NCBI GenBank assembly: GCA_964344765.1
Contig: CAYFOM010000019.1
Coordinates: 17,879 to 81,878 of the forward strand
From: an uncultured Planctomycetales bacterium
Lineage (GTDB): Bacteria; Planctomycetota; UBA1135
DNA: 64,000 bases
Reading direction: 5' to 3'
A program made the translations under genes and the position numbers. Below are positions 25,037 through 59,728 of this stretch, piece by piece (within the stretch, counting starts at the first letter, position 1; each line of letters starts with the position of its first letter). A model generated the notes under the pieces. It was not told where the DNA came from, made no database searches, and saw only the letters and a program-made list of their open reading frames with translations.

Positions 25037-26092
25037 ATGAAGAACATTCTTTCTCTCTCTGTGCTTACTGCACTGGCACTTGCGCTGATGGGCGCACCAG
25101 CCGGCGCTGCTCCGCAGTGATGCCCGACCAGAGGAGGGGGCGGTGCTCCCTCGTACGGCGGACCTAGTGACGGCGTTGGTCCTGGAGCCGGTGGTGCTCC
25201 GGCACCTGCTGCGACTCCAACTCCTGGTGCTGCACCACCAGTCCCCGGCGTGGGCCCTGGTGCGGTAACTCCGGGCGGCGGCACAGGTGGCCGCGGTGGT
25301 GGCGCAGTCTTGGTTGTAAACCACGGCAAGACCGCCAAGAAACTGTTGCGTATGCAGTGGGATTATCCGGTCTTCCAAAAGAAGATTGTTCCCGGCGAAG
25401 TAACCGATACCGCTAAAGATGACGACACGGTTGCGGTGGCACAAATGCAAGCTCTTCCGCGCGAAGAAGCTTTCTTGTTTGTTGCCGGCGATGACCCACG
25501 TCCGCTGTTGTTGTTGCGTGAATGCGAATTCTGCAACGGCACCGACAACGCTTTGCTCAGCAAGACCGAAGGCAACGAAAAGACGTTGTTGATGGCACGC
25601 TGGTTCCACTGCGTCAAGCTTCCGACTCACGTGCTGAAGGAAGAGCACCCGTTCACCAAACTGTTCACGGACTTCCCGGGCAAAAAAGTTCCGCACCTGT
25701 TCTTGAGCAGTCGCGACGGCTTGTTGACCATCCCGCTGAAGGGTGACCAGTCGCCTGGCGAACTGTGGCGTCACATGGAGAAGATCCTTGCTTACGACTA
25801 CAACAAGAAGCCTAAGAAGTCTTTGAAGGAAGTCGGCAAGATCTTGATTCAGTACGACAACTTGGATGCTGAAGAGTCGATCGTGGAAGAACGCATGCAG
25901 CTTGAACTCGAAGAGAACGGGCCGAAGTCCAAGAAGCTGAAGAAGCTTCGTAAGGAACTTGCTCGTATCGAAACGGATCGCAAGAAGCTGAAGTCTCAAG
26001 AAGCGAAGTGGATGGACCTGGACCTGAAGCGTAAGAAAGTAGAGAAAGACATCGTTCACTCTTCCAAGGAAATCTCCGCTACCGAAAGCTGA
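25037..26092 (+). CDS. Secreted thioredoxin-fold-like (CxxC) protein interrupted by an in-frame TGA at 25118 (candidate selenoprotein, or a pseudogene/assembly error)
   Basis: ATG 25037 gives the signal peptide MKNILSLSVLTALALALMGAPAGAAPQ, then TGA. The same frame continues without a stop (CPTRGGGGAPSYGG...) into track ORF 25250..26092, which contains LLLRECEFCNG...WFHCVKLP...VPHLFL and a K/E-rich tail. Confidence 0.5.
25134..25152 (+). promoter_or_regulatory. SECIS-like stem-loop 13 nt downstream of the in-frame TGA
   Basis: A 7-bp stem GAGGGGG (25134-25140) / CUCCCUC (25146-25152, one G-U pair) with the loop CGGUG. It was hand-folded only and lies in a GGN-rich region. Confidence 0.3.
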
Positions 26093-26101
26093 TTCAGAAA
26101 A

Positions 26102-27325
26102 ATGAGATCTGCCCTAATCGGGTTGGGTCTGCTTCTTCTTGCAAGTCCTCCTGCTTCTGCCCAGAAGCAGGAGGATTTGCCTAAGTGGAAGCTAGATCCG
26201 TATACCAACAACGAGCCTGAACGCTATAAGGCTGCCGGATACGAGGCTTACCATCGCATGATGGTGACCGATGAACTGGGCACAACCGAAATCATGCAAG
26301 CCTTGGGCGACTTGGAAATGATTTGGGTGGAAACCGAGCATTTCAAGATCGGCTCGACCTTGGGCGGCCAGAAAATTCCGGCCGACAAGATTTCCAAGAA
26401 ACGCATCTTGGAAGAGATTGAAGAGCTACGGCCGAAGTTCACTGACTTCCCGAAGAAAATCAAGAAGCTGGATCCGTGGCTGCGCGTGCACCTTTATGCG
26501 CTGCGCTTGGAGAAAGAATACGACTACATCCAAGAGCTGCTTGGCGTCACCGATGCTGACTTCCCAAAGGCCGCTGGCGAGTGGGTCAAAGGAAAGTACA
26601 TGGGCGAAGGCCCGTACATGGGGCAGAAAAATAAGTTCGTTGTATTGCTGACGACAAAAAAGTCGACTTTACACCGATTTGCGCAGCGCTGGTGCGACGG
26701 CAACTTCACGCCGGAAAGCCCAATCGCGCACAACTTCCAACAAGCCGGGTGCTTGATTTACGGAACTTCGCCCGAGTTGGCCGACGGTTACTTTCACGAA
26801 GACGCTCGCTTGCATACCAACTTAGCATTCGGTGTCGCCGTCAACATGGTGCTTGGTTACAAGGGCTACATGTTCGATACGCCGGTTTGGATTAAAGAAG
26901 GCATCGCGCATCACTACGTCGTCGAAGTCGATGACCGCTACCACAACTTTTCGTTCATTAAGGACCAGTTTCCGAATGAAAAGAAGCTGTGGAAGTGGGA
27001 GCCGCGGGTGCGCAAGTTGGTCAAAAACGAAGCAACGATGCCGATGGCAACCATCATGGGTTGGAAGACGCCGGATAACTTCCGCATCGGCCACCACATG
27101 AACCTGTGGTCACGCGTCGATTACTTAATCAAGACCGACCGCAAGCGCTTCGCCAGCTTCGTCGGCGAGGTCAAAGACTACCTGCGCTCAGCGGACGGCA
27201 GAGTCACGATCGACATGGTCATGGAACGTCAGGCAAAAGCCTTCAAGCACGTCTACAACATGACCCCCGAAGAGTTCGACGCCAAATGGTCCGCGTGGGT
27301 GATGGAGACCTACGCTAAGAAGTAA
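26102..27325 (+). CDS. Secreted hypothetical protein (possibly a degenerate DUF1570/zincin-like fold)
   Basis: Signal peptide MRSALIGLGLLLLASPPASAQ. PVWIKEGIAHHY resembles the W-x-x-EG-x-A segment of MA-clan peptidase-like proteins, but no HExxH is present. It starts 9 nt after the preceding gene. Confidence 0.55.
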   Translation: MRSALIGLGLLLLASPPASAQKQEDLPKWKLDPYTNNEPERYKAAGYEAYHRMMVTDELGTTEIMQALGDLEMIWVETEHFKIGSTLGGQKIPADKISKKRILEEIEELRPKFTDFPKKIKKLDPWLRVHLYALRLEKEYDYIQELLGVTDADFPKAAGEWVKGKYMGEGPYMGQKNKFVVLLTTKKSTLHRFAQRWCDGNFTPESPIAHNFQQAGCLIYGTSPELADGYFHEDARLHTNLAFGVAVNMVLGYKGYMFDTPVWIKEGIAHHYVVEVDDRYHNFSFIKDQFPNEKKLWKWEPRVRKLVKNEATMPMATIMGWKTPDNFRIGHHMNLWSRVDYLIKTDRKRFASFVGEVKDYLRSADGRVTIDMVMERQAKAFKHVYNMTPEEFDAKWSAWVMETYAKK

Positions 27326-27956
27326 TAGTTTCTGAGTGTTTCACTTTTTGAAATACGTAGGGTCCCTTTTCCGCGCCCCAAGCTTGAGTGTGATTATCGG
27401 TCCAGCCTCTATCCCAGCTGGTGATTGTGCCGGGAAGAAGGGTGACTTCGGAGGTGGCGTAGGCGGCGTCGCCTAGATTGGATTCGCAGCCTTTGCCTTC
27501 GGTGGAGCCAACGTATTCGCCAGGTCCTTTGTGGACTAGGGTGATGGAGCAGCCTTCGCGTAGGGTCAGGTTGCTGGGCTGGATGGCGTTGATGACGGCG
27601 GGTTTCTCCCACACGTGCACGTATTCGAGCGGGTTGCCGGGCAGCGTGTAGACGTCGCTGCGGAAGCGGCCGTTGCCTAGGTCGACTAAGTTGTAGACGC
27701 GTTGGCGATAGGGCTTGTGCAGATTTGATGCGGCGGCTTGTTCGACGTAGAGCCATGGACCGTCGCTGCGGAATTCCCAGATGGGTTCCATCACTAGCTG
27801 GATGTCGAAGAAGTTGTCCGGATCCGCTTCGGCTTGGGCGGCGGAGCTAAATGTGCCGGTGAGAGAGGCGGCTAAGTCATTGACGCAGGGTTCGGCGTCG
27901 TGGGTCGTACTGGCGCAGCCGCCTAGCAGAGCGAAAAGGATCAGCAGTCGCTTCAT
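27315..27956 (-). CDS. CpcT/CpeT-family (DUF1001) beta-barrel lipoprotein
   Basis: MKRLLILFALLGGCAS is a lipobox. LTGTFSSAAQAEADPDNFFDIQLVMEPI, LYVEQAAASNLHKPYRQRVYNL and GKGCES...SWDRGW...GPYVFQK align block for block with cyanobacterial CpcT as I remember it. Confidence 0.75.
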   Translation of the reverse strand: MKRLLILFALLGGCASTTHDAEPCVNDLAASLTGTFSSAAQAEADPDNFFDIQLVMEPIWEFRSDGPWLYVEQAAASNLHKPYRQRVYNLVDLGNGRFRSDVYTLPGNPLEYVHVWEKPAVINAIQPSNLTLREGCSITLVHKGPGEYVGSTEGKGCESNLGDAAYATSEVTLLPGTITSWDRGWTDNHTQAWGAEKGPYVFQKVKHSETITS

Positions 27957-30900
27957 TGCCGAAGAATAGCACCTTCGGGGGTAATGATTGTCACCGGGCC
28001 GAACAAGCCGGACTTCATCAACGGCGGGATTTCGGTGTAGACCGGGCGGTCCTTGCCGCGCGGCGTTGCGCCGTACCAGCTGTCCGAAGTTGGATCGGTT
28101 TGCATGCGGTCGAGATTGCTGCGCGTGTGGCGTTGATCCTCGGGGAGTAAGGAATCGCCATTCAGGCGGTTGGCCCAGAGATTGGCGACGCGCACTTGGA
28201 GGTGGTTGTTGCCGGGCTGGATGGCGTCGGTGATTTCAATCCGGAACGGCGGCAGCCAAACACAACCAAGCGATTGACCGTTCAGACTGACTTCGGCGAT
28301 TTCGGCAAGGTCGCCTAGTTGGAGGAATAACCGTTCTTGCTGCAACAACTCGGGTGATAACTCAAAGGACTTTTTGTAGGTAGCAATGCCGGAGAAGAAG
28401 CGGATGCCGTCATCACTGGATTCGGTCCAGCTTTGCAGCGTCGGGAAAGTGGTTTGCGGGGGCGCCCCCCATCCTTGCGGGAATTCAACTTGCCATGGGC
28501 CTTCTAGGGTCAATCGCAGTGGTGCCTGCGCGGCTGGGAAGGTCTCGGTTGCCAATGCATCCAACGCGTTGGGGGCAGTTTGCAAATTCGAGGCGCCAGC
28601 GGCTAGGTCGGATTCCGCCTGTTGATCTCGGAAGACAACGAACACCGATGCAAGCGGCGAAAGCTCAAGATCAAGCTCGGTATAGCCGCCGGCACTTCGC
28701 CAATTGGTGCAAGTCGATCGCTTGCCCGTTTGCGGCCACCAGAATTCCGGCACTTGGCCATTGGCTTTGGCGTCGACTCGGAAACGGCATATCAACGACT
28801 GCCCATTTCGCGTCTTGTTGCGCACGAAATAAAAGTCGTCGGTACGAGTACGGCGGTGGATGAAATCCAATGGCCCGATGTCACCGGGCTCGCGGCCAAC
28901 GACCTGGAAGTCTTCGCCGACACCCAGCTGGCGTAGAGCCGCACTGCGATCCGTCGTCAGCGTCAGGCCGCCCTTAACCCTAGATCCGGGCCCACGCCCC
29001 CACAGTTCATCGGCGATTCGCAGCATTTCCGCTGTTTGCTTTTCCGAGTCATGAAGGCCGGGAGTATGCGTGGGTTTTTGATTCGCGATGACCGTCGCAC
29101 CTTCGGCGAGCAACTCACGAATGCGTTGCAATACCAAAAGTGGAATGTGTTTCTGATCGGGCAAGACCAACGCGGCATAACTCATGCCGTCGGGCAAAAC
29201 GATTCGGCCGTCGGCGACACGCATGCGCTCCAAAATGACTTGCGATGAACAAACGTCGTAGTCGTAACCGGCATTCAACCCTTCCAGCAATGGGTGCTCC
29301 GGCACGTTGCACAATGGCGGATAAAAGTTTGGCGCTTGGTCGCCGTAGTAATAGCAAACGTCGGCAACAAACCAGCCTTGGCGCAGCATGTAAGAGCAGC
29401 GGGCCAAATAATCCAGAAACGCGCCCGCCATCGGCCACCAGGTCGCGGTTGGGTTGATGTCGGTACCGGCGTGATAAGCCCACCCCGGCAAACCGGCTTC
29501 GGGCGGCGAGCTGGCGAAGGTGTGAAGGGAGAAGTTATTCAATCCTTCGCACAGTGCACGGTCGGCATGATCTTTGTGATTCAGCGGTCCATCCACCCAG
29601 CGCCGCCAAGTAGTAAACGCTTCGGCGTCAACCAATCGCTTGCCGTAAACATGCGCGGCCGACGCAATTTCTTTGACCAAAAATATGCCGCGATGACGAA
29701 TCCAAAATTCGCCGCGCGGAATATCCACCGCCCCCAACGCTTTGACCCCGTCGACCGGATTCGACGCCCAAATCGGCGGCCCCGGTCCACCCGATTCGGC
29801 GATCAACTTGACGCCATAACGATTCAAAAACGTGCGCCCGGTGACGTAATGTGCGTCGATCAATCGATCGCTAACTAGCTTGCGCCAGTCGTATAAGAAT
29901 CGTTCGTTCTGCTTTGAGTCGGCCAACTTCCAACCAAGCAATAGCGGCAAGTACGGGATCACGTCGTAACCGACACGGCGCTGGAAGGCGTCGGCCATCG
30001 AGTTGTTCCACGGAGTGAAGCCGTCCAGCTCCATGCTGTCGAATTCCATCGTTTGGAAGCTGGTACCGACAAAAGACTCGCGGCCCAGTTCGTTCAAAAT
30101 CGTAGAGACAATGTGATGGAGGTGAAACTCGGTCGCTGCCGGATCAAAAAAGTCGATCATCGGTCCGCCCGAATTCGGACTAGGGACAATCAACTGTTGG
30201 CCATGGTTGCTGCAAACAAAGCGCAACACCGTCCAATCACCCGCTGGAGCCTTCCAGTGCAGCTTGCCGGCTGCGTCGACCTTCGAGGTTAAATCGATGA
30301 CCTGATTGACGCCGCCGATGACCTGCTCACTGCTCGACGGCACCGCCAATACCGCGACCTCATGTAGATAAATCGGTTTACCGTCGCCGTCGCGCGGGCA
30401 GTTGCGTGGCAATTCCGGCAACGGCAAGTCCACAATCAACGGCTTCGCTTTCTTTCCGCCCAATGACCCGGATCCGCTCACGCTCGTGGCCGAGACATAA
30501 AGCCCCTTGCCAGCATGTTGCGGCGAAATCCACGAACCGCCTGCATTCCAACCACTGGAAGCCACCAAGCCGATTTCTAAACCCAATCGATCCGCTTCAC
30601 GAATGGCATGTGCAATCAGCCGCGTCGACTCCGGGCCCAAAAACTCCGGTCCGGCGGGCACGCGCCCATCCGGATCCGCATGAGCCGCCACATCCCAAAT
30701 CTCGCCGCCGCGCATACCGCCGCGCTTCATCTCTTCCAAATCACGCGTGATCTGCTCCTCGCGAATCGACCCATTCAGCCAATCCCAAAACGACCCCGGT
30801 CGCGCGTGCAAAGGGGGAGCGGCAAACAATTCTGGCGAGAGTTGATCGTCGGCACGCGATTGAGGAATACCGGTTCTGGCCTCAAAGGATTCCTCGGTGG

Positions 30901-31000
30901 CATCTACGACCGATTTGGAATGGGTCGAGCAACTCACACCCAAAAAGGCGGTCACCAGCAGAGCAATTGTGGAGCGTTTGGCCGTTGGGGCAGCGGTCAT
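27953..31000 (-). CDS. Large glycoside-hydrolase-like lipoprotein (GH106-like N-terminus, jelly-roll sugar-binding C-terminus)
   Basis: From ATG 31000: MTAAPTAKRSTIALLVTAFLGVSCS. FWDWLNGSIREEQITRDLEEMKRGGMRGGEIWDV resembles the GH106 rhamnosidase-family N-terminal block. The C-terminal VSLNGQSLGCVWLPPFRIEITDAIQPGNNHLQVRVANLWANRL is typical of the GH2-type sugar-binding domain. The track ORF's upstream 92 codons run through tRNA-Pro and were trimmed. Confidence 0.6.
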   Translation of the reverse strand: MTAAPTAKRSTIALLVTAFLGVSCSTHSKSVVDATEESFEARTGIPQSRADDQLSPELFAAPPLHARPGSFWDWLNGSIREEQITRDLEEMKRGGMRGGEIWDVAAHADPDGRVPAGPEFLGPESTRLIAHAIREADRLGLEIGLVASSGWNAGGSWISPQHAGKGLYVSATSVSGSGSLGGKKAKPLIVDLPLPELPRNCPRDGDGKPIYLHEVAVLAVPSSSEQVIGGVNQVIDLTSKVDAAGKLHWKAPAGDWTVLRFVCSNHGQQLIVPSPNSGGPMIDFFDPAATEFHLHHIVSTILNELGRESFVGTSFQTMEFDSMELDGFTPWNNSMADAFQRRVGYDVIPYLPLLLGWKLADSKQNERFLYDWRKLVSDRLIDAHYVTGRTFLNRYGVKLIAESGGPGPPIWASNPVDGVKALGAVDIPRGEFWIRHRGIFLVKEIASAAHVYGKRLVDAEAFTTWRRWVDGPLNHKDHADRALCEGLNNFSLHTFASSPPEAGLPGWAYHAGTDINPTATWWPMAGAFLDYLARCSYMLRQGWFVADVCYYYGDQAPNFYPPLCNVPEHPLLEGLNAGYDYDVCSSQVILERMRVADGRIVLPDGMSYAALVLPDQKHIPLLVLQRIRELLAEGATVIANQKPTHTPGLHDSEKQTAEMLRIADELWGRGPGSRVKGGLTLTTDRSAALRQLGVGEDFQVVGREPGDIGPLDFIHRRTRTDDFYFVRNKTRNGQSLICRFRVDAKANGQVPEFWWPQTGKRSTCTNWRSAGGYTELDLELSPLASVFVVFRDQQAESDLAAGASNLQTAPNALDALATETFPAAQAPLRLTLEGPWQVEFPQGWGAPPQTTFPTLQSWTESSDDGIRFFSGIATYKKSFELSPELLQQERLFLQLGDLAEIAEVSLNGQSLGCVWLPPFRIEITDAIQPGNNHLQVRVANLWANRLNGDSLLPEDQRHTRSNLDRMQTDPTSDSWYGATPRGKDRPVYTEIPPLMKSGLFGPVTIITPEGAILRQ

Positions 31001-31086
31001 GGCAAGCGAGGCAAGGGAGTCAATGCTCGACCTTACGAAACGCTTCCTGCGTCGGCATCCAAATCGCCGGATTCCCTGAATAAAAA

Positions 31087-31164
31087 TGGTCGGGGCGAGA
31101 AGATTCGAACTTCCGACCTCTGCAACCCCATTGCAGCGCGCTAGCCAGGCTGCGCCACGCCCCG
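31087..31164 (-). tRNA. tRNA-Pro (anticodon GGG), CCA encoded
   Basis: The reverse complement is CGGGGCGTGGCGCAGCCTGGCTAGCGCGCTGCAATGGGGTTGCAGAGGTCGGAAGTTCGAATCTTCTCGCCCCGACCA. Acceptor CGGGGCG/CGCCCCG, D stem GCGC/GCGC, anticodon stem CTGCA/TGCAG with loop ATGGGGT, and T loop TTCGAAT. Confidence 0.9.
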
Positions 31165-31288
31165 ACCGAAGGGCGCATAGTCTAGCAATGCTTCTCCAGC
31201 ATGCTAGTCCCAACTGGTAAAGACCCGTTTCGGTGCTTATCCTCTGGGAATTGCCCTGGGATTTCCATCCTGGCACTCTGGTTTAGCT

Positions 31289-56633: not shown

Positions 56634-58100
56634 ATGTCAGCCGACACCAAGCCCGCCAAAGCCGCCAAGGGCAAGAAGGCCAAAAAGGAGAAATCCACCC
56701 ACCCCTTCCGCGACAACATCGAAGTGATCGTATTTGCGATCGCAATGTCGCTAGGGCTCAAAGTATTTGCCCTCGAGGCTTATCAAATCCCGACTGGCTC
56801 GATGCAGCCGACGCTTATGGGCACCGATTTGCTCGAAAGCGGGCAACCAGTAGGCGGCGTGCACGACCGTGTTTTGGTCGACAAGATCTGCTACATGATT
56901 CGCGAACCCGAGCGCTGGGAGGTCATCGTTTTCCGCTATCCATTGGCGGCGACGAATAACTATGTCAAGCGTTTGCTGGGTTTGCCCGGTGAAGATTTGT
57001 GGGTGCAGAACGGCGATATTTGGACGCGCGCGGGCGGCACCGCCGACGAGTTTGTCATTCAAACCAAACCCGACAACGTGCAGGACTCACTGTGGAAACA
57101 GGCCTATCCAACCGCCGGCCTCAGTGGCATTGAATGGGTCAACTGGAAGCTGATCGGCGTCCCCAAACCCGGCGACGATGGCCTCGCCAAAATGAAGACC
57201 GGCAGCGTGATCTCCTATCCGGCGTTAACGCGCGGAGTCACGAATGAATATCGTCACGGTTACCACGAGGACATTCTCACCAAGATCCCGATCGCGCAAT
57301 CCAGCTTCGGCTCAAATACGCCGGTGTCCGATTTGCGCTTTGAAATGGACGTGACGATGAACGACGGCAGCGGACCGCTAATCGTTGAGGGTGAATTTGG
57401 CCCATACCCGATCAAGCTGACCCTGCTGCCCGGCGGCAATGGTGAGTTGGAATTGCCGGATGGCAGTTTGCGCACCATCGAGTACACGCCCGAAGCCGGC
57501 GAGACGTTCCACTTGGATTTTGCCTTCTGGGATCACCACTATCGCCTGCGATTGGGCAAGGAAGAATGGGCTGAAGACCTGAAGTTGGAATCGCATCCGG
57601 CCGGCCGTAATGGACTGGTGGTGCGAAGCGAAGGATCTTGGACCATTAGCCCGGTGACAATCTCGCGCGACATTCACTACATTCCGTCGATCAGCGGTAC
57701 CGTCGGCCTTTATGAGATTCCGGAAGATCACTACTTCATGATGGGCGATAACACGCAGAATTCGCTGGATTCGCGTGATTGGACGGCGCGGACTTACCGC
57801 TTCGATCCGCCGTGGAATGGGCATTCCATCCTGCGCGGCGACAACCTGCCGAACGGCCACGATCCGCTGTACAACAACCCGCGCCAAAACTCGGATCGCA
57901 CCGTCACCACCTTCCGCGATGAATGGGGCGATCTGCACCAGATCCCGCGCGAGGAATTGCTGCGCGCCAACGCCGACGGAACCGCCGAAGAGATGGCCGC
58001 TCATTTTGTGCCGCGCCGCTACATCCAGGGCAAAGCATTGGCTGTTTTCTTGCCCATCCCGCCGTTTGCACCAGTATGGCGCATTGGCTGGGTGCACTAA
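56634..58100 (+). CDS. lepB: Signal peptidase I (unusually long, 488 aa)
   Basis: IPTGSMQPTL (catalytic Ser box), YVKRLLGLPGEDL (Lys box) and MMGDNTQNSLDSRDW. Confidence 0.85.
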   Translation: MSADTKPAKAAKGKKAKKEKSTHPFRDNIEVIVFAIAMSLGLKVFALEAYQIPTGSMQPTLMGTDLLESGQPVGGVHDRVLVDKICYMIREPERWEVIVFRYPLAATNNYVKRLLGLPGEDLWVQNGDIWTRAGGTADEFVIQTKPDNVQDSLWKQAYPTAGLSGIEWVNWKLIGVPKPGDDGLAKMKTGSVISYPALTRGVTNEYRHGYHEDILTKIPIAQSSFGSNTPVSDLRFEMDVTMNDGSGPLIVEGEFGPYPIKLTLLPGGNGELELPDGSLRTIEYTPEAGETFHLDFAFWDHHYRLRLGKEEWAEDLKLESHPAGRNGLVVRSEGSWTISPVTISRDIHYIPSISGTVGLYEIPEDHYFMMGDNTQNSLDSRDWTARTYRFDPPWNGHSILRGDNLPNGHDPLYNNPRQNSDRTVTTFRDEWGDLHQIPREELLRANADGTAEEMAAHFVPRRYIQGKALAVFLPIPPFAPVWRIGWVH

Positions 58101-58978: not shown

Positions 58979-59728
58979 GTGAAGATCAGTGTTTGCGTAA
59001 AACGCGTCCCGGCCACGACCACCCGCGTTGTCGTCGGCGACAATAATCGGATCGACCCGAACGGGGTCGAGTTTGTCCTCAACCCCTACGATGAGTTTGC
59101 CGTCGAGCAGGCTCTGCAAGTCAAAGAAGCCGGCGAAGGCACCGTATCCGCTTTCTGTTTCGGCACCAGTGATTCGCAGAAAGAACTGCGCACGGTGCTG
59201 GCCAAAGGCGCCGACGACGTCACGCTGCTACAAAACGACGACGCGCCGCACGCCGATGGCGCCACCACCGCCAAGGTGTTGGCCGACGCGATGCGCGATG
59301 GTGGTTACGACTTGATTTTCTTCGGTAAGCAAGCCGTCGACCGCGACCAGCATGGCGTCGGTCCGGCTGTTGCGACGATGCTTGGTATTCCGTGCATTAC
59401 CGAAGCGATTTCGTTTGAGCTGCAAGGCGACAAGGTCGTGTGCGAGCGCGAAGTGGAAGGTGGTCGCGAGACCGTCGAAGCTCCGCTGCCGTGTGCTGTC
59501 ACTTGCATGAAGGGTTTGAATGAACCGCGCATTGCCAGCTTGAAGGGCATTATGGCCGCCAAGCGCAAGCCGCTGGAAACCGTCGACGTTGCGCTGGATG
59601 GTGCTGCTGTTGAGGTGGTGGAAATGACCATGCCGCCGGAACGTCCGGCCGGTCGCATAGTCGGCGAAGGCGCCGCTGCCGTTCCTGAGTTGGTCGCTGC
59701 GCTGCGCGACGAAGCCAAAGTCCTCTAG
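58979..59728 (+). CDS. etfB: Electron transfer flavoprotein beta subunit
   Basis: GTG 58979 is preceded by AAGGAG (58967-58972). VKISVCVKRVPATTT...LNPYDEFAVEQAL. Confidence 0.9.
   Translation: MKISVCVKRVPATTTRVVVGDNNRIDPNGVEFVLNPYDEFAVEQALQVKEAGEGTVSAFCFGTSDSQKELRTVLAKGADDVTLLQNDDAPHADGATTAKVLADAMRDGGYDLIFFGKQAVDRDQHGVGPAVATMLGIPCITEAISFELQGDKVVCEREVEGGRETVEAPLPCAVTCMKGLNEPRIASLKGIMAAKRKPLETVDVALDGAAVEVVEMTMPPERPAGRIVGEGAAAVPELVAALRDEAKVL

Follow-up and report, generated by a model that had tools for sequence, protein, structure and literature searches.

A putative secreted selenoprotein of Planctomycetota with selenocysteine predicted at the tip of an N-terminal arm

The DNA analysed here is a 64,000-nt stretch from an uncultured Planctomycetales bacterium (the window), which carries on its forward strand a reading frame that opens with a signal peptide, meets a TGA at once after it and then continues as C-P-T-R-G-G-G-G and onward to the next stop, the TGA at 26090-26092, for a total of 352 codons (Table 1). 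Within the window TGA also serves as a normal stop, terminating 14 of the 40 long ORFs. The initial annotation had read this arrangement as a secreted selenoprotein in which Sec and Cys are vicinal. The signal peptide opened by ATG 25037, the TGA at 25118-25120 and the open frame beyond it are all where it had placed them; the downstream ORF has GTG 25250 as its first listed start, as it had said; the RECEFCNG segment with its CxxC and the WFHCVKLP and VPHLFL segments are present in the translation; and the next gene, 9 nt downstream, does start at 26102 with a signal peptide of its own.

Table 1. Features of the candidate selenoprotein gene and its neighbour (positions within the window)
Feature	Position	Strand	Remarks
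Complete coding sequence of the predicted selenoprotein	25037..26092	+	351 residues, Sec at codon 28; open frame but for TGA 25118; architecture common to 72 homologous genes
Signal peptide MKNILSLSVLTALALALMGAPAGAAPQ	25037..25117	+	opened by ATG 25037; probable signal peptidase I site after A-G-A
TGA, predicted to be read as selenocysteine	25118..25120	+	TGA in 72/72 homologous genes; Cys here in full-length relatives
TGC, Cys adjoining the predicted Sec	25121..25123	+	second TGA at this codon in 42/72 relatives
Gly/Pro/Ala-rich disordered linker	25124..25327	+	pLDDT ~50, model residues 1-65; G 31%, P 21%, A 18%
Candidate bacterial SECIS hairpin	25134..25152	+	stem 25134-25141 / 25145-25152; apical loop GGU 25142-25144; UGA-to-loop distance 21 nt
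Linker motif Y-G-G-P-S-D (Y-x-G-P-[GS]-D)	25154..25171	+	38/72 genes, 6-19 residues past Sec
Predicted thioredoxin-fold domain	25328..25798	+	invariant CxxC; WFHC; P-H-L-F before strand 3; AlphaFold2 pLDDT >90
Predicted Lys/Glu-rich antiparallel coiled-coil hairpin	25811..26014	+	helices 231-266 and 271-298, pLDDT ~98
Partner gene, secreted 407-aa protein	26102..27325	+	gluzincin (collagenase or aminopeptidase N)-like fold, no HExxH

The signal peptide is under purifying selection, to judge from the nine synonymous differences against a single non-synonymous one that separate its codons from those of the homologue at locus L001. Its cleavage site was placed by the -3/-1 rule, not by a prediction tool, and probably lies after A-G-A, which would leave A-P-Q-U-C as the mature N-terminus. 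Counted from the Sec position, Ala at -6 and -4, Pro at -2 and Gln or Gly at -1 are conserved over the 72 homologous genes. A lipoprotein, with the Cys directly after the signal peptide, was considered and rejected: the lipobox L-[AS]-[GA]-C is absent, the residues ahead of Sec or Cys being A-P-Q, V-P-G or x-A-Q, and Gln or Gly-after-Pro at -1, together with the A-x-A site, fits signal peptidase I, not signal peptidase II.

In the AlphaFold2 model the two cysteines of the CxxC (C135, encoded at 25523-25525, and C138, at 25532-25534) follow a strand formed by residues 129-133 and stand at the start of helix 1; both are invariant in 108 aligned sequences. The beta-alpha-beta-alpha-beta-beta-alpha core of thioredoxin-fold oxidoreductases is present in this model, and the top Foldseek matches of the domain in the PDB are all to thioredoxin, DsbD-gamma, ERp19 or AGR2, with probabilities up to 0.96 and weak E values of 0.02 or higher, so that the thioredoxin-like domain postulated earlier is backed by both the predicted structure and its structural neighbours. 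Searches of Pfam-A, NCBIfam and PDB sequences gave no match that would make the protein a member of the curated Trx, Dsb, TlpA or redoxin families. The coiled-coil hairpin behind the domain matches the coiled coils of Kif21A and SerRS in Foldseek.

The partner lies directly downstream of the selenoprotein gene in 75 of the 78 related loci compared, and has been duplicated together with it, every copy of the selenoprotein gene having its own copy of the partner. Its model (pLDDT 93) resembles Vibrio collagenase (8jt1, 7wss; probability 1.0, TM 0.40), 4fca and aminopeptidase N, and the conserved residues are E77, H80, H130, R135, E137, G267, H270 and H332. Since it lacks HExxH, the motif for zinc binding and catalysis, we have not filed it as a peptidase; Pfam, NCBIfam and PDB sequence searches with it found no match. 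Beyond this pair of genes, the survey of conserved neighbours turned up only glpK and housekeeping genes, with neither DsbD/CcdA nor sel genes among them.

The central evidence comes from the comparison of the 78 related loci, 72 of whose genes form the main group of a family that amounts to 372 clusters at 50% identity. All 72 have a signal peptide followed by TGA at the same codon, and never by TAA or TAG; the context before it in these Planctomycetota genes is [A/T/V]-P-[Q/G]. The codon that follows is a second TGA in 42 of them, Cys in 23 (TGC 13, TGT 10), Gly in 5, Arg in 1 and Pro in 1, so that the stops at the two positions taken together are TGA in 114 cases out of 114. From the first TGA to the RECxxC motif the distance varies between 74 and 127 codons, and the two are in frame at every locus despite the variable linker. 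The genes come from independent assemblies of many studies, among them the complete genome of a cultured strain (L067); the cultured and fully sequenced Engelhardtia mirabilis Pla133 has the UGA-UGA form, at about 1,534,253 of NZ_CP036287.1, with a predicted mature N-terminus such as A-P-G-U-U-T-P-P-S-K. Because of this comparison, and not of the hairpin in the window alone, the TGA of the window is almost certainly a real selenocysteine codon, and the orthologues speak likewise for the vicinal Sec-Cys pair that had been proposed.

The initial annotation had kept an assembly error and a pseudogene as live alternatives. A single base change does turn TGC or TGT into TGA, whether by a sequencing or assembly error or as the recent lesion of a Cys or other sense codon, and another apparent 1-nt lesion had been mentioned elsewhere in the window. 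These alternatives are excluded because the TGA is conserved across the homologues: the same codon would have to be struck in 72 independent assemblies, the complete genome of L067 included, with a hairpin behind it in about 80% of the genes, and purifying selection acts on the coding sequence that flanks the codon. A lesion at this codon is thus scarcely credible.

Relatives that have Cys aligned to the Sec position (P0029, P0108, P0312 and about 25 others, with (A)Q-C after the signal peptide) provide the sense-codon version of the gene. P0029 and P0108, like about 26 of 33 longer representatives, are uninterrupted ORFs in which a signal peptide is followed by AQC, and P0312 reads GAPAGAAPQ-C, the window gene's own context. 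Cys-form paralogues occur at L019, L027, L045, L063 and L051. The earlier question of whether the orthologues have TGA, TGC/TGT or nothing at this codon is therefore answered by TGA throughout the main group and by TGC or TGT in the Cys forms. Some distant members, P0338 and P0344, have lost the CxxC and kept the N-terminal Cys; the N-terminal arm can thus do without the CxxC in some cases, which counts against a redox relay between the two.

The hairpin of the window begins 13 nt past the TGA, and its arms, GAGGGGGC and GCUCCCUC, form 8 bp with one G-U pair. The 7-bp stem with loop CGGUG described at first is the same hairpin with its closing C-G pair opened, and the 13-nt offset given for it was right. 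Taken by itself it is weak evidence and not significant: the fold of the window sequence has a dG of -22.8 kcal/mol and z = -1.73, with 9 of 200 shuffled sequences equal or better, in keeping with the initial warning that such stems arise easily. Published criteria for bacterial SECIS elements (PMC13188914) ask for a loop of 3-9 nt with G in one of its first two positions, an upper stem of 4-16 bp, a distance of 16-37 nt from the UGA and a dG of -7.5 kcal/mol or lower, and the 8-bp stem, GGU loop, 21-nt spacing and dG of the window hairpin all lie within them.

Across the 72 homologous genes the pattern goes far beyond chance. The loops seen in the family are GGU, GUG, AGUU(C) or GGUC; in 63 of 70 genes the loop has a GU whose G lies 22, 25 or 28 nt after the U of the first UGA, that is, in 3-nt steps. 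Stems of at least 6 bp stand at the expected spot in 80% of the genes, against 4% of shuffled sequences and 6% of the linker 60 nt further on, and the positional profile from -90 to +260 has a single peak, with 56 of 72 loci at +18 to +29 over a background of 0-5 per bin. The 5' stems are of 62 distinct kinds among 70, and the pairing is maintained by compensatory changes: in all three loop classes 85-89% of the cells are paired, compared with 52-62% after shuffling (none of 500 shuffles was as high), with double changes in 6-8 of the 8 stem pairs. In 14 of the 70 genes a simple ungapped search did not recover a stem of 6 bp or more whose loop GU is correctly spaced; bulged stems or different loop sequences may explain some of these cases. 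No hairpin was found in the five Cys-form genes examined at the DNA level. The covariation looked for by the initial annotation is thus present, at a fixed distance from the UGA and in the genes with TGA.

Run on an ordinary MAFFT alignment of the 54 nt that follow the TGA, RNAalifold found no structure, because the loop lengths of 3, 4 and 5 nt shift the 3' arm out of register; the hairpins were accordingly analysed by loop class in place of such an alignment. Against Rfam, only two tRNAs reached the gathering threshold, and on 25080-25220 no SECIS family appeared even with E values of up to 10 allowed. A covariance model built from the hairpin has just 21 positions, too few for specificity: its best matches in the window (57927-57947 and 59051-59071 on the minus strand, and 25182-25202) have E values of 0.1-0.4, and the two on the minus strand have no upstream TGA. 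A scan of the window for further ORFs with TGA plus hairpin found nothing convincing as a second selenoprotein.

The same arrangement could in principle yield two products, a 27-codon leader with a true stop and a domain whose translation begins internally, for instance at GTG 25250, in which case the hairpin would be an attenuator or an element of translational coupling. Gene callers do give the homologues as proteins of 230-300 aa from varied internal M or V codons, and a GC-rich Gly/Pro linker may be stop-free by chance. The called starts, however, vary between proteins, no internal start being conserved, while the leader is a classical signal peptide that shares the reading frame of the domain at every locus, and a thioredoxin-fold protein with a secreted partner would be left with no export signal. 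The Cys-form relatives, moreover, encode precisely the fused product; a true stop should sample TAA and TAG, which it does in none of 114 cases; and the hairpin has the loop and spacing of a SECIS element and is gone where the codon is Cys. We regard separate products as very unlikely indeed. Public databases systematically mis-annotate the genes of this family as N-terminally truncated hypothetical proteins lacking a signal peptide.

In other systems, structures 3' of a stop codon are known to stimulate its read-through, which counts in favour of a selenium-free version here, with the UGA read by a near-cognate tRNA for Trp, Cys or Arg and the hairpin assisting. Searches for selA, selB, selD and a tRNA-Sec, using tblastn with the E. 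coli SelA, SelB and SelD proteins and ARAGORN for the tRNA, found none of them in the 64-kb window and about 0.8 Mb of sequence from the 78 related loci; the only SelB matches are weak (22-26% identity over the first ~210 residues) and are probably to other translational GTPases. Against such decoding stand the specific alternation of this position with Cys in the relatives and the fit of loop sequence and spacing to the SelB-type SECIS model. Four related contigs, furthermore, bear genes of known selenoproteins in which TGA stands for the catalytic Cys and a hairpin of the same type is present, namely an MsrA with GUFWG (L051; Pfam PMSR, E = 9e-39) and a UxxC redoxin with TGA (L031, L032 and L078), and the full Sec machinery has been published for some Planctomycetes (PMC4807772). 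We consider selenium-free decoding very unlikely.

We therefore favour, with a probability of about 0.87, the reading that 25037-26092 is a single gene for a selenoprotein secreted by way of its Sec-pathway signal peptide. SelB and Sec-tRNA(Sec), steered by the hairpin at 25134-25152, would insert selenocysteine at UGA 25118, and removal of the signal peptide would leave the vicinal Sec-Cys at the end of a disordered Gly/Pro arm, roughly 65 residues long and tethered to the predicted thioredoxin-fold domain with its invariant CxxC and then to the coiled-coil hairpin. Most relatives would have a Sec-Sec pair in its place, from UGA-UGA ahead of one hairpin. The terminal selenol/thiol pair (or diselenide) may be a mobile redox or soft-metal-binding centre; the arm might undergo exchange with the CxxC of the same protein, with the co-encoded protein of collagenase-like fold as its target or its site of action.

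Several known systems share part of this design. The thioredoxin-like selenoproteins of bacteria (thioredoxin, DsbA/DsbG-like, TlpA-like and redoxin, with UxxC or CxxU) have in common with it an in-frame UGA with a SelB-type hairpin in the coding region, Cys homologues and the thioredoxin fold, and several of those families are exported as well. Their Sec, however, replaces a Cys of the in-fold CxxC active site, whereas in the family described here the CxxC stays Cys-Cys and the predicted Sec is borne outside the fold by a disordered arm, 2-4 residues in from the mature N-terminus, an unusual placement. The closest analogy is the Gly-Cys-Sec-Gly tail of mammalian thioredoxin reductase, which resembles the arm in mechanism only and not by homology: adjacent Cys and Sec are carried on a flexible terminal extension that could be serviced by a dithiol centre elsewhere in the enzyme. 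A pair of this kind can form an eight-membered selenenylsulfide ring. That tail is C-terminal, has the order Cys-Sec and belongs to a cytosolic flavoenzyme with a eukaryotic 3'-UTR SECIS, while the arm is N-terminal, with Sec-Cys or Sec-Sec, on a bacterial protein that is secreted and lacks a flavin domain.

Adjacent Sec and Cys (CU or GxUC) are found also in SaoL, SaoC, HgcA, MbdU, a CopZ-like 2Fe-2S family and KCU-star, which have other folds and contexts, mostly in organometallic or metal handling in Firmicutes and Deltaproteobacteria; in the present family the order is U-C, at the mature N-terminus. Such proteins lend some weight to a different role for the same selenoprotein, in which the Sec-Cys or Sec-Sec pair would serve mainly as a ligand for a soft metal or metalloid (Hg, Cu, Zn, As), or like a 'cysteine switch' for a metal site in the partner, and would not cycle between redox states: the organometallic and metal-handling SaoL, HgcA, MbdU and CopZ-like family are among the CU/GxUC motifs of a 2026 catalogue of prokaryotic selenoproteins, the N-terminal Cys persists in members without CxxC, each selenoprotein gene copy has a partner to itself, and E77, H80, H130, E137, H270 and H332 of that partner are (nearly) invariant on a metallopeptidase-like fold. 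There is, however, no sequence homology to SaoL, HgcA, MbdU or the CopZ-like family, nor any sequence match to the wider group; the metal site of the partner is only putative, with no HExxH; and the CxxC, invariant throughout the 108 aligned members, speaks for a thiol-disulfide chemistry that most of the family would share. A role chiefly as a metal ligand is thus conceivable and somewhat unlikely.

The 2026 catalogue comprises 119 prokaryotic selenoprotein families, none of which has an adjacent-Sec (UU) motif, and our searches of the literature on adjacent or tandem Sec in bacteria and on selenoproteins of Planctomycetota found no description of the family to which the window gene belongs. 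It appears to be a previously uncatalogued family of secreted thioredoxin-fold selenoproteins of Planctomycetota, and as such would be a widespread addition to the prokaryotic selenoproteins in a phylum scarcely represented among them. The strict pairing with an uncharacterised protein of collagenase fold hints at a putative new extracytoplasmic activity dependent on selenium.

Two Sec residues near enough for a diselenide are known from the eukaryotic SelL (UxxU), from bacterial UxxU metal-binding and FmdB-family proteins and from TsoB (UxxxxU). In the bacterial examples the UGA codons are a few codons apart, whereas here they are directly adjacent in 42 of 72 genes, with one hairpin downstream. 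The SECIS of E. coli fdhF, with its loop G23-U24, likewise has a hairpin right after the UGA and a GU in the apical loop; the loop G of this family is at position 23, 26 or 29 from the U of the first UGA, the first of these being the fdhF position. No bulged U was identified in the family hairpins. Unlike the fdhF element, one hairpin would have to serve two consecutive UGAs in the Sec-Sec members.

We lean, with some reserve, towards the view that both adjacent UGAs are in fact decoded as Sec by means of the single hairpin in most members, including that of Engelhardtia mirabilis Pla133, giving an N-terminal Sec-Sec capable of forming a diselenide, and that this protein works with its dedicated collagenase-fold partner as a new two-protein, selenium-dependent extracytoplasmic system; by the 2026 catalogue and our literature searches this would be the first natural case of adjacent Sec-Sec in a prokaryote. 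One SECIS would then recruit SelB twice, to consecutive codons 3 nt apart. The UGA-UGA members offer a natural test of how tight the spacing between SelB and SECIS must be and of whether one hairpin can serve two codons, questions usually approached by engineering, and since E. mirabilis Pla133 is cultured and fully sequenced, the family is directly testable.

The gene of interest is very probably a Sec-Cys member of an apparently undescribed, widespread selenoprotein family of planctomycetes. It encodes a single exported polypeptide with a conserved UGA at codon 28, accompanied by a co-varying SECIS, and judged from its sequence it qualifies by computational criteria as a bacterial selenoprotein; we put the probability of its being a true selenoprotein gene at about 0.87. 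The ATG, signal peptide, TGA, open frame, hairpin and secreted downstream gene all lie where the initial annotation had placed them. The product begins MKNILSLSVLTALALALMGAPAGAAPQ, and beyond the TGA the frame remains open across a stretch rich in Gly and Pro and across the ORF listed with start GTG 25250, as far as a TGA at 26090-26092 (352 codons in total). The ATG of the next gene, whose secreted, collagenase-fold product is here called the partner, is in frame with this stop (26090-26104, TGA TTC AGA AAA ATG), probably by chance; the sequence downstream of the stop forms no more than a weak 6-bp hairpin.

Positions of the features discussed, in the window or in related loci (L numbers)
Feature	Sequence	Position	Strand	Remarks
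Start codon of the window gene	window	25037	+	ATG
Candidate Sec codon	window	25118-25120	+	TGA; next codon TGC
Hairpin	window	25134-25141 (GAGGGGGC) / 25145-25152 (GCUCCCUC)		one G-U pair; loop GGU; 13 nt after TGA
Linker motif Y-x-G-P-[GS]-D	window	25154-25171		
Second SECIS-like hairpin	window	25182-25202 (CUGGAGCC-GGUGG-UGCUCCGG)		64 nt after TGA
Partner gene start	window	26102	+	own signal peptide present
tRNA-Pro(GGG) gene	window	31087-31164	minus	
MsrA TGA	L051	11991	minus	
Redoxin TGA	L031	11403	minus	
Redoxin TGA	L032	4549	minus	
Redoxin TGA	L078	8851	minus	

A protein search returned 140 homologues, none with a Pfam domain; nearly all of those bearing an organism name are labelled as Planctomycetota or Planctomycetes MAGs, and all are hypothetical or unnamed except one labelled 'ribosomal protein L29' (P0008). 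Nearly all of the called proteins begin at differing internal Met or Val codons, while P0029 and P0108 are full-length, with a signal peptide followed by Q-C-[PN]-G-G-G. In public databases (e.g. P0001-P0013) gene callers have cut the Sec forms short at arbitrary internal starts, so that neither the signal peptide nor the Sec residues appear in the deposited sequences. Seventy-eight genomic loci were retrieved, one per GTDB species and including the complete genome of the cultured Engelhardtia mirabilis Pla133, and the region preceding the conserved RECxxC motif was translated in that motif's own frame. Seventy-two genes have a signal peptide leading through [A/T/V]-P-[Q/G] to a TGA, followed by a second TGA in 42, Cys in 23 (TGC 13, TGT 10), Gly in 5, and Arg and Pro in one each; as read from the codons, two adjacent candidate Sec codons (UGA-UGA) are the majority form of the family. 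Not one of the 114 stop codons at the two positions is TAA or TAG, and the spacing from TGA to RECxxC varies from 74 to 127 codons, yet the frame is always maintained. Misassembly, pseudogene decay or a reassigned code could also put a TGA in frame, but these are excluded because the TGA is conserved, because TGA is an ordinary stop in the window (it terminates 14 of the 40 long ORFs), and because the signal-peptide changes are mostly synonymous (nine synonymous codon changes and one non-synonymous relative to locus L001). The gene pair, otherwise strictly planctomycetal, also occurs in MAGs labelled Myxococcota, Candidatus Paceibacteria and Paracoccaceae (L060, L064, L072), which are probably binning contaminants.

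A-x-A is conserved at -6 and -4 upstream of Sec, and by the -3/-1 rule signal peptidase I would likely cut three residues before Sec, giving the mature start A-P-Q-U-C; the same rule gives Q-C as the probable mature N-terminus of the Cys forms, in which the ORF is uninterrupted. A profile search of 1.84 billion representatives put the family at 372 clusters at E <= 0.001 and 237 at E <= 1e-10. About 26 of the 33 longer representatives fetched consist of a signal peptide, (A)-Q-C-[P/S/N/H], a Pro/Gly-rich linker and the domain, and one of them, P0312, reads GAPAGAAPQ-C-H, the window's own context with Cys replacing Sec; on their sequences, these relatives represent classical Sec/Cys alternation. 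In five loci the selenoprotein gene and the partner gene have been duplicated together in tandem. Four of these (L019, L027, L045 and L063) each pair a Sec-form copy with a Cys-form copy that has a poly-Pro linker (…QCGGYGGPPPPPP), while both copies at L028 have the TGA; a TGA version of the poly-Pro type (ADL-U-PGSGHGGPPPPPP) occurs at L053.

The window hairpin by itself proves little, because the 48 nt from the TGA, folded alone (-22.8 kcal/mol; z = -1.73), are matched in stability by 9 of 200 shuffles; the caution of the initial annotation about a lone hairpin was justified. Family hairpins were sought by a simple ungapped search requiring GU in the loop. In 63 of 70 genes the loop G lies 22, 25 or 28 nt past the U of the first UGA, and therefore moves in frame. 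A stem of 6 bp or longer is present in 80% of genes, versus 4% of shuffled sequences and 6% when the linker is scanned 60 nt further downstream, and the 5' stem sequences are highly varied (62 distinct among 70 genes). The profile from -90 to +260 has one peak, with 56 of 72 loci at +18 to +29 and 0-5 in the other 6-nt bins. MAFFT plus RNAalifold did not succeed on the family hairpins because loop lengths vary, and covariation was assessed on ungapped alignments split by loop class. Since these were preselected for hairpins the percentages of paired cells are partly circular: 85.9% versus 61.9% shuffled for 5-nt loops (n = 31; double changes in 8 of 8 pairs), 88.8% versus 61.8% for 3-nt GGU loops, the window included (6 of 8), and 85.2% versus 52.4% for 4-nt loops (8 of 8). 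In each class none of 500 shuffles reached the observed pairing, and shifting the 3' pairing partner abolished the signal; the shuffle and downstream-linker stem controls and the positional profile are free of that circularity.

The element fits the published bacterial SECIS model, which calls for a loop of 3-9 nt, G within its first two positions, a stem of at least 4 bp, a distance of 16-37 nt from the UGA and dG <= -7.5 (PMC13188914). Both codons of the UGA-UGA members lie within the allowed distance, at 18-25 nt, of one hairpin. The comparison of orthologues suggested in the initial annotation shows that the hairpin goes together with the TGA, since it is absent from all five Cys-form genes examined as DNA. 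A second SECIS-like hairpin in the window, a covariance-model match, has no conserved position across loci (1 locus per bin, +60 to +71).

The AlphaFold2 model of the window protein, built on 108 sequences (mean pLDDT 81.5), consists of a disordered arm of ~65 residues, a thioredoxin fold and a long antiparallel coiled coil. Within the fold (pLDDT >90) the invariant C135-x-x-C138 directly follows strand 1, W-F-H-C lies on strand 2, and P-H-L-F precedes strand 3; all of the top hits from Foldseek against the PDB are thioredoxins, DsbD-gamma, ERp19 and AGR2, but with E values no lower than 0.02. The initial reading as a secreted selenoprotein is thus upheld by the conserved TGA, the co-varying hairpin, the Cys forms and the thioredoxin fold with its CxxC. 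Of the 72 genes, 38 have a short conserved peptide, Y-x-G-P-[GS]-D, 6-19 residues beyond Sec, just past the hairpin in an otherwise low-complexity linker; it may serve for docking or processing. At a similar place, a further subclade has W-[GA]-P-x-D.

Insertion of Sec at codon 28 would be SelB-dependent. The predicted vicinal Sec-Cys (window) or Sec-Sec pair on the mobile N-terminal arm may form a redox or soft-metal centre. It might undergo exchange with the CxxC in the same protein's thioredoxin domain and serve the partner with the collagenase fold. In mechanism the closest analogue is mammalian thioredoxin reductase, which carries a Gly-Cys-Sec-Gly tail. Our confidence in a specific biochemical role is much lower than in the selenoprotein identity. 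The CxxC is degenerate in some distant members (P0301, P0332, P0338, P0344, P0358, P0382; e.g. REGSDYGKGYD), several of which retain a Cys right after the signal peptide, so that the N-terminal residue seems the more persistent feature; for that reason a function as a ligand, either of the partner or of a metal, is a serious rival, if in our view the less likely one.

The partner (407 aa, to position 27325) is encoded directly downstream in 75 of 78 loci. Foldseek matches its model (pLDDT 93) to Vibrio collagenase, B. anthracis protein 4fca and aminopeptidase N, with probabilities up to 1.0 and TM ~0.4; HExxH is absent from its sequence, and E77, H80, W126, H130, R135, E137, G267, H270, H332 and W336 are invariant or nearly so.

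The 64-kb window and the related loci contain no tRNA-Sec and no homologue of E. coli SelA, SelB or SelD; full Sec machinery has been published for other Planctomycetes (PMC4807772). A scan of the loci for further TGA-plus-hairpin ORFs yielded members of known selenoprotein families: an MsrA with ATFALG-U-FWG, U being at the catalytic site (Pfam PMSR, E = 9e-39), and, in three loci, a secreted redoxin/AhpC-TSA-like protein with FWGTR-U-GG-C. Each of these genes has a GU-loop hairpin of the same type 21-23 nt after its TGA; they sit on contigs of family members and are absent from the window.

Searches of Pfam-A, NCBIfam (release 20, which contains selenoprotein models) and PDB sequences gave no match to a curated family. 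The motifs in a 2026 catalogue of 119 prokaryotic selenoprotein families include UxxC, CxxU, CU, GxUC and UxxU, but the catalogue has neither a UU motif nor a family whose Sec stands at the mature N-terminus; the text of that review does not mention Planctomycetes, and a literature search of incomplete coverage found no description of the family.

A survey of conserved neighbours in the loci found nothing else consistently linked to the gene pair. The window ORF at 27953-31276 (minus strand; 1107 aa as listed) spans a tRNA-Pro gene and must therefore really begin further downstream, and its tblastn matches in nine loci (70-96% identity) are probably due to translation of the tRNA region. tRNA-Pro is found in up to 17 related loci (18 calls including the window's), a recurrence that suggests conserved synteny.
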